Origin: Gemmatimonadales bacterium
GTDB taxonomy: Bacteria; Gemmatimonadota; Gemmatimonadetes; Gemmatimonadales; GWC2-71-9
Assembly (NCBI GenBank): GCA_041615815.1
Contig: JBFJCP010000014.1
Coordinates: 32,001-96,000, forward strand
DNA length: 64,000 nt
Direction: 5' to 3'
Under the pieces are notes generated by a model. It made no database searches, was not told where the DNA came from, and saw only the letters and a list, made by a program, of their open reading frames with translations. Both the position numbers and the translations under genes were made by a program. Shown here in pieces: positions 10,293-47,169 of the stretch (the stretch's first letter is position 1; each line of letters starts with the position of its first letter).

Positions 10293-10628
10293 ATGGCCAG
10301 CAAACTCGCTGCGAAGCAGTGCGTACCGTGTAAGGGAGGTGTCCCGCCGCTTCGGGGCGGGGAGATCACGCAGTTGTTGGACCAGTTGGGGGGTGGGTGG
10401 AAGGCCGTCGACGGTCACCACCTGGCGAAGGAATACAAGTTCAAGGATTTCGCCGAGGCGTTGGCCTTCACCAATCGCGTGGGCGCCATTGCGGAGGACC
10501 AGGGTCATCATCCCAATATCTACCTGACCTGGGGAAAGGTGGGCCTCGAGATCTGGACCCATAAGATCGACGGGCTGACGGAAAGCGACTTCGTGCTCGC
10601 AGCCAAGGCGGACGAAGCGCTCGACTAG
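10293..10628 (+). CDS. phhB: Pterin-4-alpha-carbinolamine dehydratase
   Basis: CVPC N-terminus, FKDFAEALAFTNRVGAIAE, GHHP, WTHKIDGLTESDFVLAAK. Confidence 0.9.
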   Translation: MASKLAAKQCVPCKGGVPPLRGGEITQLLDQLGGGWKAVDGHHLAKEYKFKDFAEALAFTNRVGAIAEDQGHHPNIYLTWGKVGLEIWTHKIDGLTESDFVLAAKADEALD

Positions 10629-10632
10629 CGGG

Positions 10633-12249
10633 CTACGCAATACATCGCTCAATGAGGTCGTCGTAGCCATCTCGAGTCGGGTCCTGGGGTAGGTGCCGCA
10701 GGGTCGTCAGTTCGGCTCGGGCGCGAATGCCCGGTTCGTCGATTCCCGCGAGCGCACCCAGGTGGATCCACGACCCAAGGCGGTCGCAGACACGTCGCAA
10801 TAGCAGGGTGTCCTGCTCCTTCAGGCACCGGTCGAACGCCCGGCGATCGGGTCGCAGCCTGCCGGGCTCGAGCCGCTCCTCGAGCTGGGCAAAGAAGCCG
10901 TCGTGGAGTCCCAGTCGGAGGGCATCGTTCAGTACCTGCATCCGCAGCGTGTGGTTGGTGCCCTCCCAGTTTTCGAAGACCACATTGTCTCGCAGCAGGC
11001 GCGGCAGGACGCTGAAGGTCTCGATGGTGCCGTTGCCTCCCAGAATCTCGATCGCTCGGGTGATGGCATCGTGCGATAGATAGGAGGTCCGCACCTTGTT
11101 GAGGTTGAGACCCATCCGCAGAAAGGCTGTTTCGTCGTCGGGACCCTCACCGCTATCGACGCGCTGCTGGATCTGAGCGAGCCAGAAGGAACCCGCCAGC
11201 GCGGCTTCAGCATCGGCACGGATCATAGCAAGCGTTTCCTTGACCAACGGATAGCGGATGATGGTCTCGCCGAAGGCACGGCGGTGCTCGGCGTAGCCGC
11301 GTGCCACCAGGTAGGCTCGATGCGCGAGGGCCGCGCACGCGAACGCGTTGTAGAGACGGCTGGTGTCGATGATGAGCTCCATGGTATTGCGGAACCCGCG
11401 CTCGAGCGGCCCAAGCTGCTCGGCGTAGGCCCCCTCGAAACCGATCTCGGCCGTCACCATCGAGCGCGTACCCAGCTTGTCCTTCAAGCGCTTCAGCACG
11501 AAGCCGTTCGGCTCGCCACCGATCCGCCGGGGCACGAGAAACAACCCCAGCCCTTTGGTGCCCTCTGCGGCCCCCTCCGGCCGGGCCGTGACCAAGAACA
11601 GGTCCGCATCGGCGCTCGAACAGAACCACTTCTCACCCGTGATGCGCCAGCTGCCACCGGCCTCTCGGTGGGCGACCACGGCGTTGGCCCCCACGTCCGA
11701 GCCCCCCTGCACCTCGGTCAGGAATTGGGCACCCGCACAGTGGTCGCCATACACCGGGGTGAGCAGCCGGGGAAGCCACGCCGCTTTCTGCTCGTCGGTA
11801 CCGAGGGACTGAAGAGCCCGAATTGCACCGGCGGTGCACGCTAGCGGGCAGTTGTGGCCACCTTCACCGACGTGAGCCGACAAGTAGAAGAGGGAGAGGA
11901 TGAAGGGATGCGGATTGGGGATCGCTGCGTAGGCCGCCATCACCCCGCTCCCATAGATGAGGCTGCCAGCCCGGTGGTAGCTCGGATGGTGGGCGATTTT
12001 GGCCACGTAGCGGCCGATACCGTCGAACGTGTCCAGCACCGGCAGGTTCCCGGCTTGGTTGTTCTCAATGACCGCGGAATCCAGCGGCCCCGCCGCCACC
12101 GCACCAAAAGCCTCGAGGGCCGAACTACGGTTTCCCAGCCCTGCCCTGTCCACCAGCATCTGCAGCAGAGGGTCGGCGTGGTAGAAGTTTTTTGGCTGCG
12201 CCGCCAGCCATTCGCTGAGCGCCCTGCGGCCTTCTTCGACAGCCCTCAT
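10633..12249 (-). CDS. Acyl-CoA dehydrogenase (AidB-like subgroup)
   Basis: QFLTEVQGGSDVG, GEKWFCS, RLKDKLGTRS, RRAFG, EILGGNG, WEGT; GAGGAG SD 7 nt before ATG 12249. Confidence 0.88.
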   Translation of the reverse strand: MRAVEEGRRALSEWLAAQPKNFYHADPLLQMLVDRAGLGNRSSALEAFGAVAAGPLDSAVIENNQAGNLPVLDTFDGIGRYVAKIAHHPSYHRAGSLIYGSGVMAAYAAIPNPHPFILSLFYLSAHVGEGGHNCPLACTAGAIRALQSLGTDEQKAAWLPRLLTPVYGDHCAGAQFLTEVQGGSDVGANAVVAHREAGGSWRITGEKWFCSSADADLFLVTARPEGAAEGTKGLGLFLVPRRIGGEPNGFVLKRLKDKLGTRSMVTAEIGFEGAYAEQLGPLERGFRNTMELIIDTSRLYNAFACAALAHRAYLVARGYAEHRRAFGETIIRYPLVKETLAMIRADAEAALAGSFWLAQIQQRVDSGEGPDDETAFLRMGLNLNKVRTSYLSHDAITRAIEILGGNGTIETFSVLPRLLRDNVVFENWEGTNHTLRMQVLNDALRLGLHDGFFAQLEERLEPGRLRPDRRAFDRCLKEQDTLLLRRVCDRLGSWIHLGALAGIDEPGIRARAELTTLRHLPQDPTRDGYDDLIERCIA

Positions 12250-12281
12250 TGCGGCACTCCTCAAGAAAAACGTCACACGCG

Positions 12282-12349
12282 AAAAAAACGTAACACGGGG
12301 GCGTCCGGCACGCCTACCCGGCGCCGCATCCGGTGCCTGGGAATCCCCC
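12282..12349 (-). terminator. Possible imperfect intrinsic terminator after the small peptide gene
   Basis: Minus strand GGGGG-AT-TCC-CA-GGCAC...GTGCC-GGA-CG-CCCCC followed after 8 nt by a T7 run. Confidence 0.3.
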
Positions 12350-12378
12350 TGCCGGGTCGTCGAGCTGCCGGTGGGACG

Positions 12379-12573
12379 CTATTGAAGCGGCGGCTTGGGG
12401 ACCAACACCACCCGGCAGCACAGCGGACCGTAGCATTCCCCGAAACAAATGAGACTGCCGAAGATGTAATACGGCTGAAGAAACGATTGGGCGCGCACAG
12501 GACTCGGCATTGCCGACGCGCCGACCGTCAGCGCGAGCATCAACCACGCGTGCTTCACGAAGCGCATGAACAT
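12379..12573 (-). CDS. Small secreted Cys-rich peptide (64 aa; predicted 36 aa mature, C-x3-C-x4-CC)
   Basis: [10 protein letters not shown] 7 nt before ATG 12573; MFMRFVKHAWLMLALTVGASAMPSPVRA signal peptide, then QSFLQPYYIFGSLICFGECYGPLCCRVVLVPKPPLQ. Confidence 0.72.
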   Translation of the reverse strand: MFMRFVKHAWLMLALTVGASAMPSPVRAQSFLQPYYIFGSLICFGECYGPLCCRVVLVPKPPLQ

Positions 12574-13103
12574 CGCTGAACCTCCTCCGGTACGAGTGAG
12601 CCTTCCGGACAGGCGCACTCCTCATGGCTCATTCCTTGTTGAACGTCGATTGAATCGACGGCGAATCCGACCGGGCGGGCCGCTGGCACCCACACGGCAA
12701 TGACGGTGTCGTGCCGCACCACGTACAGGGCTGGCACGGATGCGCGGCCGAACATCTTGCGGTGCGCCCCGCGGTTCAGCCGACTCACGCGCGCCACGAT
12801 GCGTTCGGCCTCGAGGAAGGCTCGGACCCGGTCCTCCCCACGTCCGACGACGACGACTTGAATTGCCGCTTCCATTGGGATGCCGGACCATCGACGGAGC
12901 GCCCGGCTCGGCGTCCGGCATGTCAGGCAGTCTTGAGCGCGGATCACCCACGTAATGAGCAGCGGGGCCCGCCCGGTGGGACGCAGCAGCGGTGGGGCTC
13001 CATCCCCGACCTCGAGCGAACGGGTGCTTCCACCCCGCCCACACCACGCTACGCCGCCCATTGCTACGACGGCAATGATGAGCCGAGCCGTCCTACGCGC
13101 CAT
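12555..13103 (-). CDS. Membrane-anchored thioredoxin-fold (CxxC) protein
   Basis: N-terminal anchor, LEVGDGAP, LLITWVIRAQDCLTC, and cis-Pro-like SVPALYVV, consistent with a TlpA/redoxin-like fold. Confidence 0.6.
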   Translation of the reverse strand: MARRTARLIIAVVAMGGVAWCGRGGSTRSLEVGDGAPPLLRPTGRAPLLITWVIRAQDCLTCRTPSRALRRWSGIPMEAAIQVVVVGRGEDRVRAFLEAERIVARVSRLNRGAHRKMFGRASVPALYVVRHDTVIAVWVPAARPVGFAVDSIDVQQGMSHEECACPEGSLVPEEVQRCSCAS

Positions 13104-14098
13104 CGGTTTGGAACCATGGCTTCGGGATCCACAAAAACCAGACGGCCGGCGTCATCCACGGCGAGCAACCGTGGGGTATCCTCGACCTCGAAAAGCCCCC
13201 GCCCCCCCAACGTCATCGCCAGGAGATTCCAGCGAACGGTGGAGCCTTCCATGTCGTAGTACTGGAGCAGCAGTGTGTCCCCGCCCGTCCAAAACACCTC
13301 CGAGAGCCGAGAGAACGACTGGAGCCACTGCTGCACGGCTCGGGCATTGACGCGCGGTGGCGGGTCATGGACGTCCCGAAAGTGCCGGGACGGGAGGGGA
13401 ACGCGGCGGTGCTCCGTGCTTCCCAAGCCAAACAGGTGCACGGCCGGATCCGTTGCGAACACGGCGATCACCAGTGAATCGCGCTGCGTCGCATGGGCGT
13501 GACCGACCATCCACACGACACTCGCCAGGCTCGGGCGGACCCGTGGAACCGGAAAGAGGCGTGCTGTGACGGTCTGCTCCCCCGTGTCCCACACATGGAG
13601 GAGCCGAGTGTCCGCTCGGTTTGGACCCCGCCCCATCAGCAACAGGGTTTCTCGATCCAGCCCGACGAAACCATAGAGCGGGATCAACGACGTCACGGCG
13701 GTCCCGGTGACCTGACCAAGGGAGTCGAAGGTGCTCAGCCGACCGGAGAACTCGCTCACGATCATGGAGCCGTCTGCCAGCAAGCCTGCCGCCATGGGTG
13801 GCGTCGAGAACTCTCCCGGGCCGGTGCCATGAGCGCCGACGGTGCGCGTGAGTGTCCCGTCCAAGCGGTACTGACGTACTTGGTATTCCTTCATGTCCGC
13901 CACCAGGTATCCGCTCGTATCGACGCGGACACGAGGCGAGACATTGATGACCCGCGCGTTTTCTTCGAGCGAGATGGACCGTTCCCACACCACCACCTCA
14001 TCCAAGCGTCGCTCGACCGCCATCGGGCGCTCGCCACCTTGGGTACTACAGGCACCAATGCCCAGCGACACGAGGATGCCGGTCCGGTGGATGTGCAT
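13064..14098 (-). CDS. 6-bladed (NHL/TolB-like) beta-propeller lipoprotein
   Basis: Lipobox LGIGA-C after ATG 14098; YLVAD..YQVRQYRLDG..RTVGAHGTGPGEF motif typical of this family. Confidence 0.75.
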   Translation of the reverse strand: MHIHRTGILVSLGIGACSTQGGERPMAVERRLDEVVVWERSISLEENARVINVSPRVRVDTSGYLVADMKEYQVRQYRLDGTLTRTVGAHGTGPGEFSTPPMAAGLLADGSMIVSEFSGRLSTFDSLGQVTGTAVTSLIPLYGFVGLDRETLLLMGRGPNRADTRLLHVWDTGEQTVTARLFPVPRVRPSLASVVWMVGHAHATQRDSLVIAVFATDPAVHLFGLGSTEHRRVPLPSRHFRDVHDPPPRVNARAVQQWLQSFSRLSEVFWTGGDTLLLQYYDMEGSTVRWNLLAMTLGGRGLFEVEDTPRLLAVDDAGRLVFVDPEAMVPNRWRVGRLGSSLPS

Positions 14099-14217
14099 GC
14101 GGCCCGCCCTTGGAAAAGCCGGTGGCAAGCTGCAACGAGAAACCGACGACGGAGTAGGAAAAAACCGCTGTTGTGGACCGGAAAAACGCGGGGAGGGGAG
14201 GCTTGACGTGAGCAATG

Positions 14218-14295
14218 GGACGGTGAGAAGGTGTGACGGTTGGACGGTGAGGAGTGGCGCTGGCGACTTTCTAACCTTTTGACCTTCCGGCCGTC
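14218..14295. repeat. Short inverted array of degenerate 8-mers
   Basis: GGACGGTG AGAAGGTG TGACGGTT GGACGGTG, then complementary-sense CGACTTTC TAACCTTT TGACCTTC CGGCCGTC. Confidence 0.4.
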
Positions 14296-14322
14296 ACGAA
14301 CGTCCCGCCTTCCAACTTCTGC

Positions 14323-45205: not shown

Positions 45206-47169
45206 TAGTACATCTCCTCGATGGCCCGCTCACCGGGATCGGGCCAGGTCCACACCATCTTCTCACGGCTGGTGACCCCACCCCGCGGCGACGCGATGAC
45301 ACCACTGGTGCGCATGCCGGTGGGCCGCGGCCGGACGGGTTGCGCTCCCTCTACTAGCTCGCGAGCCAGGCTCACCGACGGCGACACGCCCCGCGTCTCC
45401 GCGGTGTCGAGCACGCGCTGGACCATGCCGACCACCGCTCGAATCCCGTCGGCCGAGCGGGCTGCGAGGTAGTCCGCGAGGTCGTCACTCACCTCACCAT
45501 GCCGCTCCTTGAGCTTGCGGGCCACGATGGCGCGCCGCAGCTCGCGGTCCGGCGTCCCGATGGCGACCACCTGTCCCATTTCCAAGAGCGCCGCGAGTTC
45601 CCCGCCAAGACCTTCCGAGACGCGGGGCGCGGTGGTGAGCGTGACCACCACCTGTCGGTGCGATGCCCGGAACTGCGCGATGAGATGGGCCAGCTCTTCC
45701 TGCGGACGCTCCTTGCCAGCCAGCAGCTGCACGTCATCCAGCAAGAACGCGGTCACGGGTTGATAGCGGGACAGCCAGATGCCCAGTCGGTCACCCTCGA
45801 GCGCGTCCTCGAGCTCGTCTTCGAATTGTTGGGCGGAGAAGCACGCGACCATGGCGCTGGGCTTGGCGGCGAGGGCGTTGCCGATCGCGTGGAGCAAGTG
45901 CGTCTTGCCGACCCCGCTGGGACCCACCAGAACCACGAGGGGCCGTTCCACACCCGGCGCCTCGAGCGCGACACGAGCCGCTTGGAGTGCCGCGCGATTG
46001 GCCTCTCCCTCCACGTAGGTCTCGAACCGCCATGCCGCCGACGGCGCGGGCGGGGGAACCTGATGCTTGGTCGCCTCTTGCACGAGCGCCTCGGCTTCCG
46101 CCACGCGGTCCGGATCGGTGAACGCCGGGTCTTCCACCCGAGCGGGATCGACGGTTTGCATGACACCAGCCAGCGAGCGAAGACGTTTCACATCGCGCTC
46201 GAACTCGCGCAGGGCCTGGTCGACGGCGACCGAGACGTCCTGGAGCAACAGCTGTTCGAGCCGCGCCGTGCGATACCCCTCTTGCTGCCACCGCTCGATC
46301 CCCGCCTCGAGACGGGTCCGCCACTGCTCGACCTGGTGCTCCACGGCCTCGGTGACGTCGGACAAGAATGCCGCGAACTCGTCACGCGACGGCGCGGCTC
46401 CAGCTCCCACCGGCATCGGCGTGCCACCCCCCACCGCCGCAAGGGCGGCGCCCTCTCCCGCCACCAACGCCTGGACCATGTCCGCATTCAGGGCCTGCTC
46501 GCTCACCGCCTGAAGCGCGACAACGCGATTCAGATAGCCGAGGAGCTCGCGAATGCTCGAGACTTCGAGCCGCGCCAATGTCTCGACCACGTCTGCAGCC
46601 AATTCGGCGCCGCGTTCCCGGGCGCGTTGTTCCAGCACGGCAATTCGCGTCTGGAACTCTGGGAGGCCGATGTCCACCACCAGACCGCCGGCCAGGTTGG
46701 CGCGGAGCTGATCGTCGAGATCCTCGATCTCCGACGGCGCCTTGGTGCCCGTCAACACGACCTGCTTACCCGACTGCTGGAGCTGGGTCAGCACTCGGGA
46801 GAGCTCGCTCTGGAGGTCGGTCCGACGGGAGAGATACTGTACGTCGTCGAGCAACAAGAAATCGACCTGGCTGAAGCGGTTGCGGAACGCTTCTGTCTGT
46901 CCCGCGGCGGCGGCGGCCTGGAACGCCTCCTGAAACTCCTCCAGCGACAGGTAGGTCACGGTGCTGGCGGGCGTGAGCATGTTGGCCAGCTGACCGATGG
47001 CCATCACGAGGTGCGTCTTCCCGAGACCCGGGCCCCCATGAATCACCAAGGGGTTGTACGCGGTCCCCGGCGCCTCGGCCACGGCGCGTGCAGCGCTGAC
47101 GGCCAGTTGATTGGCCGGCCCCACGACGAAGGTGCCGAACGTGTACCGCGGATTGAGGCCCGCCGTCAC
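45205..47169 (-). CDS. Tandem DnaA/Hda-like AAA+ ATPase (two ATPase modules, no domain I or IV)
   Basis: [29 protein letters not shown]; second copy [27 protein letters not shown]. Confidence 0.85.

Follow-up and report, generated by a model that had tools for sequence, protein, structure and literature searches.

A conserved cassette of propeller lipoprotein, thioredoxin-fold protein and putatively secreted cysteine-patterned peptide in Gemmatimonadota

A stretch of 64,000 nucleotides from a Gemmatimonadales bacterium (GenBank assembly GCA_041615815.1, contig JBFJCP010000014.1, positions 32,001 to 96,000; the window) carries three overlapping open reading frames (ORFs) of the same orientation on its minus strand, flanked by recG and by the gene for an AidB-like acyl-CoA dehydrogenase. 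They encode a six-bladed propeller lipoprotein, a thioredoxin-fold protein, here called the redoxin, and a short precursor with a Sec-type leader and four regularly spaced cysteines. We find that this cassette is real and is conserved as a unit in Gemmatimonadota. A sequence-only reading of the window had proposed a Sec-exported disulfide peptide system; what stands of the proposal is a conserved Cys-peptide of the Sec type with neither modifying enzyme nor exporter and with a dedicated thioredoxin-fold partner, and it is the disulfides, the action of the redoxin and the role of the propeller that we infer. Below, the conservation of the cassette and the properties of its three products are described, followed by the functions that might be assigned to it.

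The cassette and its conservation

The three genes lie where the sequence-only reading had placed them. The propeller and redoxin genes overlap by 40 nt and the redoxin and peptide genes by 19 nt, and each is single-copy in its own genome (4.19 Mb, 95.7% complete). Since the stretch 11800-14097 recurs unchanged in a contig from another study, the cassette is not an assembly artefact. None of the three window proteins has a significant Pfam match, and NCBIfam gives only a weak NHL-type match, to the propeller. The features, in window coordinates, are as follows.

13064..14098, minus strand: propeller lipoprotein gene, 344 aa; six-bladed, DUF5128/NHL-like subfamily, with the lipobox Cys17 in I-G-A-C
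12555..13103, minus strand: redoxin gene, 182 aa; TlpA/ResA-type thioredoxin fold, with an N-terminal hydrophobic helix and a conserved Cys21
12918..12929, minus strand: redoxin CxxC motif, C59-L-T-C62; C62 in 36/36 and C59 in 34/36 alignment rows
12581..12588, minus strand: Shine-Dalgarno sequence GGAGGAGG, read from the sequence, 7 nt before the peptide ATG and within the redoxin 3' end
12379..12573, minus strand: peptide precursor gene, 64 aa; matches the family profile at E 2e-10, the window peptide being itself part of that profile
12490..12573, minus strand: residues 1-28, Sec-type signal peptide and short Pro/Ala spacer, from sequence pattern and alignment; two candidate cleavage sites
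12382..12489, minus strand: predicted mature peptide, 36 aa; aromatic hairpin-like stretch, C-x3-C-x4-CC and hydrophobic tail
10629..14322, no strand: segment missing at the same site in two genomes of the same genus; cassette and acyl-CoA dehydrogenase gene

The evidence that these genes form a unit comes from the flanks of propeller and redoxin homologues, a scan that the sequence-only reading had set as the test by which it might be refuted, and from which it emerged intact. Peptides were recognised by rule, as signal-peptide ORFs with C-x3-4-C-x4-9-CC. With the redoxin as query, matches were obtained in 1/60 relatives, and both loci there have a propeller and a signal-peptide ORF ending C..C..CC. 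A propeller profile, with only five candidates scored per genome, matched 40/401 genomes of the phylum at E<=1e-20, spread over 15/147 genera. All 46 propeller loci at E<1e-40 were read: redoxin and peptide are both present, on the same strand and within 1.5 kb, in 37 (with the redoxin broken in three of these, L036, L037 and L048), a peptide only in one, a redoxin only in one and neither in seven. Weaker propeller loci have both partners in 3/7. Starting instead from a redoxin profile, which matched 66 of 400 genomes of the class, 40 of 49 new places were read, the nine weakest being left out; peptide and propeller lie beside 23/26 redoxins of the cassette type and beside 0/14 canonical TlpA genes with W-x-T-W-C-x-P-C. 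Seven families of the class yielded complete cassettes, in at least five gene orders and with one to three peptide ORFs per full locus; the cassette counts include non-independent kin, one genus contributing many loci.

Peptide and redoxin are nearly always retained or lost together, and propellers persist alone. Amongst the 67 propellers scoring at least 200 bits, 58 have both partners, one has a peptide only, one a redoxin only and seven neither. Two genomes that are 97% complete (G222 and G272, in 2 and 4 contigs) have a propeller and no match to the redoxin or peptide profile, and another two (G276 and G327) have a propeller and weak redoxin matches, with no peptide match. That the peptide gene is a chance ORF is ruled out by the linkage at these loci, by the rarity of matches to the peptide rule in the whole 4.19 Mb of its own genome (11, the window gene included; the family profile finds no other match there under E 0.2) and by the substitution ratios given below.

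Two other DUF5128-type propellers of the same genome (C2:75171-76442 and C3:159102-160748) are without a peptide match by rule or profile. Frameshifted or truncated redoxin or propeller genes, the product of decay or of long-read error, occur at L036, L037, L048, L079, L134 and L146. No related loci were obtained with the window propeller (P0001) as query in genomes, with P0005 in metagenomes or with A7 in viral contigs; plasmids gave no match and no RNA holder was listed. The 1,493 propeller representatives collected at E<=1e-30 do not measure the size of the family, giant NHL-repeat proteins being amongst them.

The peptides

The loci yielded 101 distinct peptide candidates of 58-97 aa, amongst them one evident false positive and two eight-Cys types on the opposite strand. 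A good ribosome-binding site precedes 94 of them. Across the alignment nothing is invariant besides the start Met and the four Cys, whose spacing is mostly C-x3-4-C-x4-6-CC; the first Cys is preceded by an aromatic stretch that resembles a hairpin and has a turn of Gly/Pro/Trp. There are four Cys in 83 candidates, six in 10, eight in 2 and an odd number (5 or 7) in 6, the number after the hydrophobic stretch being even in 95/101. The net charge of 100 cores runs from -7 to +5, and a cationic membrane-lytic peptide is rejected on that ground.

The leaders follow the Sec-type pattern, as had been proposed for the window precursor; the assignment of its cleavage to VRA/Q is less secure. Processing could occur after A21 (A-S-A) or after A28 (V-R-A), and the site is uncertain because a Pro/Ala spacer, mostly of 8-21 residues in the family, separates the last AxA from the hydrophobic stretch. 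It had also been suggested that the N-terminal Gln might cyclise. Gln directly follows the last AxA site in only 43/101 candidates, and a search of the genome for glutaminyl cyclases of type II, though not of type I, found none; on these two grounds pyroglutamate is rejected as a trait of the family. For the window peptide the computed monoisotopic mass is 4073.01 Da with two disulfides and 4055.99 Da with pyroglutamate as well; processing after A21 would give a longer product.

The core nearest to that of the window peptide, at L046, shares 58% of its non-Cys residues. Two or three peptides occur in 30/63 loci, where tandem peptides average 27% non-Cys identity, and L124 and L125 contain repeated peptide-propeller pairs. 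Pooled ratios of nonsynonymous to synonymous substitution (dN/dS) are 0.22 for the propeller, 0.32 for the redoxin, 0.34 for the peptide core and 0.39 for the leader, from 18 hand-picked and non-independent close pairs of loci, with peptide pairs below 45% identity dropped and two locus pairs giving no value. These values indicate that the peptides are real coding genes; their cores are under purifying selection, and no diversifying selection is seen between close pairs.

Of 51 peptides searched, none is given a name by Pfam or NCBIfam, and none has a bacteriocin match. In particular, none of the 51 matches NVEALA (PF14055) at E<=0.1, and membership of that family is rejected. The expectation that annotation pipelines would miss the window peptide was not borne out: the exact 64-aa protein is in public protein collections (NCBI, Logan; 107 contigs), called though unnamed. 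The peptide of one cassette is identical to WP_170039328.1 of Longimicrobium terrae, an organism that is presumably in culture.

A class of six-Cys peptides sharing a C-x3-C-x6-CC core (L137, L139, L155, L049 and the second peptides of L040 and L055) is mostly accompanied by propellers of lower similarity (56-105 bits) and by redoxins, and the system is therefore wider than the subfamily studied here. Eight-Cys secreted peptides with three CC pairs lie near cassettes, on the opposite strand, at L066:7614-7808 and at L125. At L058 a 29-codon ORF with C-x4-C-x4-CC and no clear signal peptide, just upstream of the propeller, is possibly a shortened precursor. Elsewhere in the window's own genome, on C24 within 46341-46955 (+), a small ORF has a hydrophobic leader and C-x6-C-x5-CC-x3-C-x9-C, a spacing that we would call knottin-like.

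The redoxin

The redoxin model (AlphaFold, mean predicted local distance difference test score, pLDDT, 78.8) has a fold of the TlpA/ResA type. Its nearest structural neighbours are TlpA/ResA/DsbE-type proteins, which include the reducing TlpA/ResA/CcmG/DsbE, and peroxiredoxin-like folds; alignment to FetE (8t4c) covers 124 residues with Z 12.6 and a root-mean-square deviation (rmsd) of 2.8. By its modelled fold and its CxxC motif the redoxin would belong amongst the TlpA/ResA/DsbE thioredoxin-like proteins. The consensus of the motif in the 36-row alignment is C-[LVF]-[GST]-C; no Trp precedes the first Cys, and the W-x-x-W-C-x-x-C motif is absent. Arg101 is invariant, and the cis-Pro, Pro124, occurs in only 21/36. 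The redoxin alignment weakly matches 19 NCBIfam families; no MauD model is amongst them, an absence compatible with kinship. The CxxC and the thioredoxin fold of the original description are upheld; a simple transmembrane anchor is less likely than a lipoprotein, Cys21 being of the lipoprotein type in 33/36 rows.

At L037, L042 and L049 the first Cys of the motif is replaced (Y-x-x-C or similar), which suggests either that a single thiol is enough or that the proteins in question are holders. The C-terminal tail of the window redoxin (12555-12630), which covers the ribosome-binding site of the peptide gene, is non-conserved, has four extra Cys and is modelled with low confidence. The genome also encodes a VKOR adjoining a DsbA-like gene and two DsbD-family proteins; MauE (PF07291) was not found in it.

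The propeller

The AlphaFold model of the propeller, built with 120 sequences, has a pLDDT of 93.4, and its strand list reads as six blades with two extra helices in the top-face loops. Cys17 of the lipobox is present in 92/120 rows, and the model agrees with the sequence-only description of a six-bladed propeller lipoprotein. In structure comparison it is closest to NHL domains and to functionally uncharacterised proteins of Bacteroides, with 3s9j and 4raa near the top: the DUF4221 protein 3s9j aligns over 308 residues (Z 22.2, rmsd 3.6) and the NHL domain of Mei-P26 over 260 (Z 22.2, rmsd 3.5). In the language-model Atlas the neighbours are DUF5128, at 0.95, and PF17170 (DUF5128) is matched by 24/120 homologues. 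The near-invariant polar residues are E46, D68, E71, R75, Y77 and H168; this is the only conserved His in the alignment, which has no obvious or multi-blade metal site.

One homologue, P0081, is a 482-aa fusion of a propeller (1-314) and a redoxin (313-466, E 2e-23) with no signal helix between them, known from one sequence on one 3.3-kb contig.

Comparison with known systems

The cassette resembles bacteriocin clusters that have a dedicated thiol-disulfide oxidoreductase, yet by comparison of its features it would fall outside them. Bacteroidetocins (class IIf, of Bacteroidales; PMC6671954) share the diderm host, the unmodified four-Cys peptide of about 40 aa and the linkage to a thiol oxidoreductase, and in both the Cys are even in number. 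They differ in that the leader, about 15 aa long, is of the double-glycine type and that the cluster encodes a peptidase-ABC exporter along with a five-transmembrane protein; that paper mentions no propeller. The cassette has instead a hydrophobic leader of the Sec type, in which no double-glycine motif was found, a propeller lipoprotein and a different Cys spacing, and neither a peptidase-ABC exporter nor a five-transmembrane protein is present in the window or recurs in 74 loci or 75 neighbours. Pediocin PA-1 with PedC, sublancin with BdbA and thermophilin with BlpG (PMC4919988) likewise pair a peptide gene with a dedicated CxxC accessory protein of the thioredoxin fold. These systems differ in their monoderm hosts, ABC export, small immunity protein and, for pediocin, the YGNGV motif, none of which is seen here; the YGNGVxC motif of class IIa bacteriocins is absent from the peptide alignment. 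As the sequence-only reading had noted for the adjacent genes, there is no enzyme of the lanthi-, ranthi- or MNIO type, or other modifying enzyme for ribosomally synthesised peptides with post-translational modifications (RiPPs), in the window or recurring amongst neighbours, leaving enzymes encoded elsewhere as a possibility.

NHLRC2 and SOQ1 (PMC6107167) also associate a thioredoxin-like domain with a six-bladed NHL-type propeller, in a single chain with the thioredoxin domain first, a CC(I/V)NC motif and no linked peptide. In the cassette there are two lipoproteins from separate genes, with C-x-x-C and a linked peptide, and the one fusion has the reverse order. Neither NHLRC2 nor SOQ1 is amongst the fold-search matches listed for propeller and redoxin, and the NHL-type and TlpA-type folds match broadly in structure searches, which limits what can be said of a relation to the NHLRC2 domains. 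In methylamine dehydrogenase clusters MauB is a propeller, and MauA carries the cofactor tryptophan tryptophylquinone (TTQ). The cluster MauB/MauD/MauE/MauA (bioRxiv 10.64898/2026.03.05.709764) offers a further parallel, with a propeller, a CxxC folding protein and a small disulfide-rich exported protein; MauA differs in its six disulfides and Trp-Trp cofactor, since the peptides here would mostly have no more than two disulfides and have no invariant Trp. The DUF5128/DUF4221/TolB-like propellers of Bacteroidota (PF17170, PF15869) have the same fold class; function is known neither for these nor for the NVEALA small proteins, and neither DUF5128-type nor NVEALA names appear in the literature searched. 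A survey of Gemmatimonadota (PMC11651109) lists ranthipeptide, RiPP-like and proteusin clusters and makes no mention of a propeller in its main text, supplements aside. No description of the cassette was found in the full-text literature searched, which leaves out most subscription papers. That the cassette is a system of its own can be put forward tentatively.

Possible functions of the cassette

The explanation that we favour, at a probability of roughly 0.45, is that the cassette makes a Sec-exported disulfide peptide for interbacterial antagonism, with the redoxin as its folding catalyst and the propeller as an immunity or binding lipoprotein. The precursor would cross the inner membrane via Sec, and signal peptidase I would release a peptide of about 4 kDa. 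Disulfides would be supplied by the general VKOR-DsbA pair of the genome, and the TlpA/ResA-type lipoprotein, fed by a DsbD/CcdA-family protein, would set the correct pairing of the four Cys, which should be C1-C3/C2-C4 or C1-C4/C2-C3 because two neighbouring Cys do not readily form a disulfide with each other. The constrained aromatic hairpin might then bind a target in the envelope of other cells, more plausibly a protein than the membrane itself because of the range of net charge. Capture of the peptide by the top face of the propeller would protect the producer, and would explain why propellers are kept alone without peptide and redoxin. The redoxin is assigned to the producing function because of its tie to the peptide; orphan propellers point to a receiving one. 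The linkage, the orphan propellers, the even Cys, the VKOR, DsbA and DsbD genes, the patchy occurrence and the tandem unlike peptides can all be counted for antagonism. Precedents are provided by the four-Cys bacteroidetocins, which need their linked thiol oxidoreductase (PMC6671954), and by PedC, which raises the potency of pediocin (PMC4919988).

There are several points on the other side. No conserved exporter or outer-membrane route was found amongst the cassette neighbours. One propeller often accompanies two or three unlike peptides, and immunity proteins are usually cognate-specific. The dN/dS of the core (0.34) is close to that of the redoxin (0.32), and an arms race is not apparent amongst close pairs. 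The P0081 fusion fits a joint folding machine better, and decay to remnants or a receptor role would account for the orphan propellers equally well. In bacteroidetocin clusters no immunity protein was found (PMC6671954).

A bolder formulation, for which the odds are longer, is that the peptides are an undescribed class of conotoxin-like mini-proteins, in which a variable aromatic hairpin is carried on a fixed C-x3-C-x5-CC scaffold. They would be exported by Sec, with no enzyme other than the propeller-thioredoxin pair, itself a split and peptide-specific folding and receiving station like NHLRC2/SOQ1. This would give a first function to the DUF5128-type group, which is very large, and make the cassette one branch of a multi-phylum system.

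Amongst the alternatives, the one that survives best is unlikely on present evidence and is compatible with antagonism: propeller and redoxin could be one periplasmic folding and handling machine, the split counterpart of NHLRC2/SOQ1 or of MauB/MauD/MauA, in which the peptide is held by the propeller during its oxidation or shuffling by the CxxC protein, and is perhaps displayed afterwards. The overlapping genes, the fusion without a signal helix between its domains and the service of one propeller to as many as three peptides that share only the Cys scaffold are all consistent with this, as are the conserved cleft of NHLRC2 between its thioredoxin-like and six-bladed NHL domains (PMC6107167) and the formation of small-subunit disulfides by MauD (bioRxiv 10.64898/2026.03.05.709764). 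It has to be set against these points that the fusion is a single sequence on a 3.3-kb contig, that seven propellers have neither partner, some of them in near-complete genomes, and that the CC(I/V)NC motif of NHLRC2 is absent; moreover, such a machine accounts for the production of the peptide and not for its action.

A signalling role, in which the peptides would be kin or quorum cues with the propeller as their receptor and with orphan propellers as eavesdroppers, is improbable. It would suit cores that vary on a constant scaffold and are under purifying selection inside lineages, as well as the orphan propellers, and genes for extracytoplasmic function (ECF) sigma factors occur near L046, L074 and L124 and AraC-type genes beside L082 and L132. 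However, neither a sensor kinase nor an anti-sigma factor nor a transporter is met repeatedly in different lineages or adjoins the window cassette, and a lipoprotein alone cannot signal across the membrane.

Still less probable is that the four Cys bind Cu or Zn, kept reduced by the TlpA/ResA-type protein, and that the propeller receives the loaded peptide. The reducing proteins amongst the redoxin's nearest folds, the DsbD-family genes and the 5 or 7 Cys of 6/101 candidates can be read in this way. On the other hand, the fold class of the redoxin also includes oxidases such as SdbA (the match 5um7), extra Cys are mostly paired (12/18), and chelation needs neither hypervariable aromatic cores nor tandem arrays; nor does any metal transporter, TonB-dependent receptor or metal regulator recur amongst the neighbours. 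Finally, the near-invariant polar residues and the structural similarity to the amidating lyase PAL (3fvz; Z 18.5, rmsd 3.9, 259 aligned) might indicate that the propeller modifies the peptide in the manner of that enzyme or of a glutaminyl cyclase, which is very improbable given the single conserved His without a multi-blade metal site, the rank of PAL (38th, behind non-catalytic NHL domains), the lack of a conserved C-terminal Gly in the peptides and the minority with Gln at +1.

Genomic setting and history

In the 74 loci, with 75 neighbours scanned, there is no additional gene that accompanies the cassette from lineage to lineage. The acyl-CoA dehydrogenase gene (10633-12249) lies outside the conserved cassette and is rejected as a core part, there being no such gene amongst the recurring neighbours. 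MacB-type permeases flank the cassette in one lineage only and on the opposite strand, for which reasons they are rejected as a dedicated exporter; plain ABC genes are found near L071 and L082 only. Large proteins with carboxypeptidase-regulatory-like domains are encoded near eight cassettes (L005, L046, L074, L075, L077, L132, L133 and L146), at several of them as the next gene behind that of the peptide. Neither a promoter nor a convincing terminator was found at the window cassette, nor any repeat marking an insertion site. Two 14-nt direct repeats, 18 nt apart (12266-12297), just upstream of the acyl-CoA dehydrogenase start, are a possible regulator site.

The occurrence of the cassette is patchy and insertion-like. 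In two genomes of the same genus (G001 and G002) recG joins directly to the gene that is at 10293-10628 in the window, so the cassette and the acyl-CoA dehydrogenase gene together represent either an insertion of 3.7 kb in this genome or a loss from the other two. A quick tree, which is weak at this depth, places the window propeller on a long branch (<=36% identity) apart from the copies of its own family, a position that would fit transfer or repeated loss.

Significance

The cassette is conserved and, in the literature searched, undescribed. If its proposed role is right, a large natural collection of small disulfide-constrained peptides is encoded in Gemmatimonadota, with about 100 distinct precursors in the loci read; no model in Pfam or NCBIfam gives them a name, and RiPP mining that starts from enzymes would pass them over. 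The peptides are short enough for synthesis, and the identity with the Longimicrobium terrae protein makes the system testable. For the six-bladed DUF5128-type lipoproteins, which are abundant and without known function, the cassette would provide a concrete hypothesis as to their ligand.

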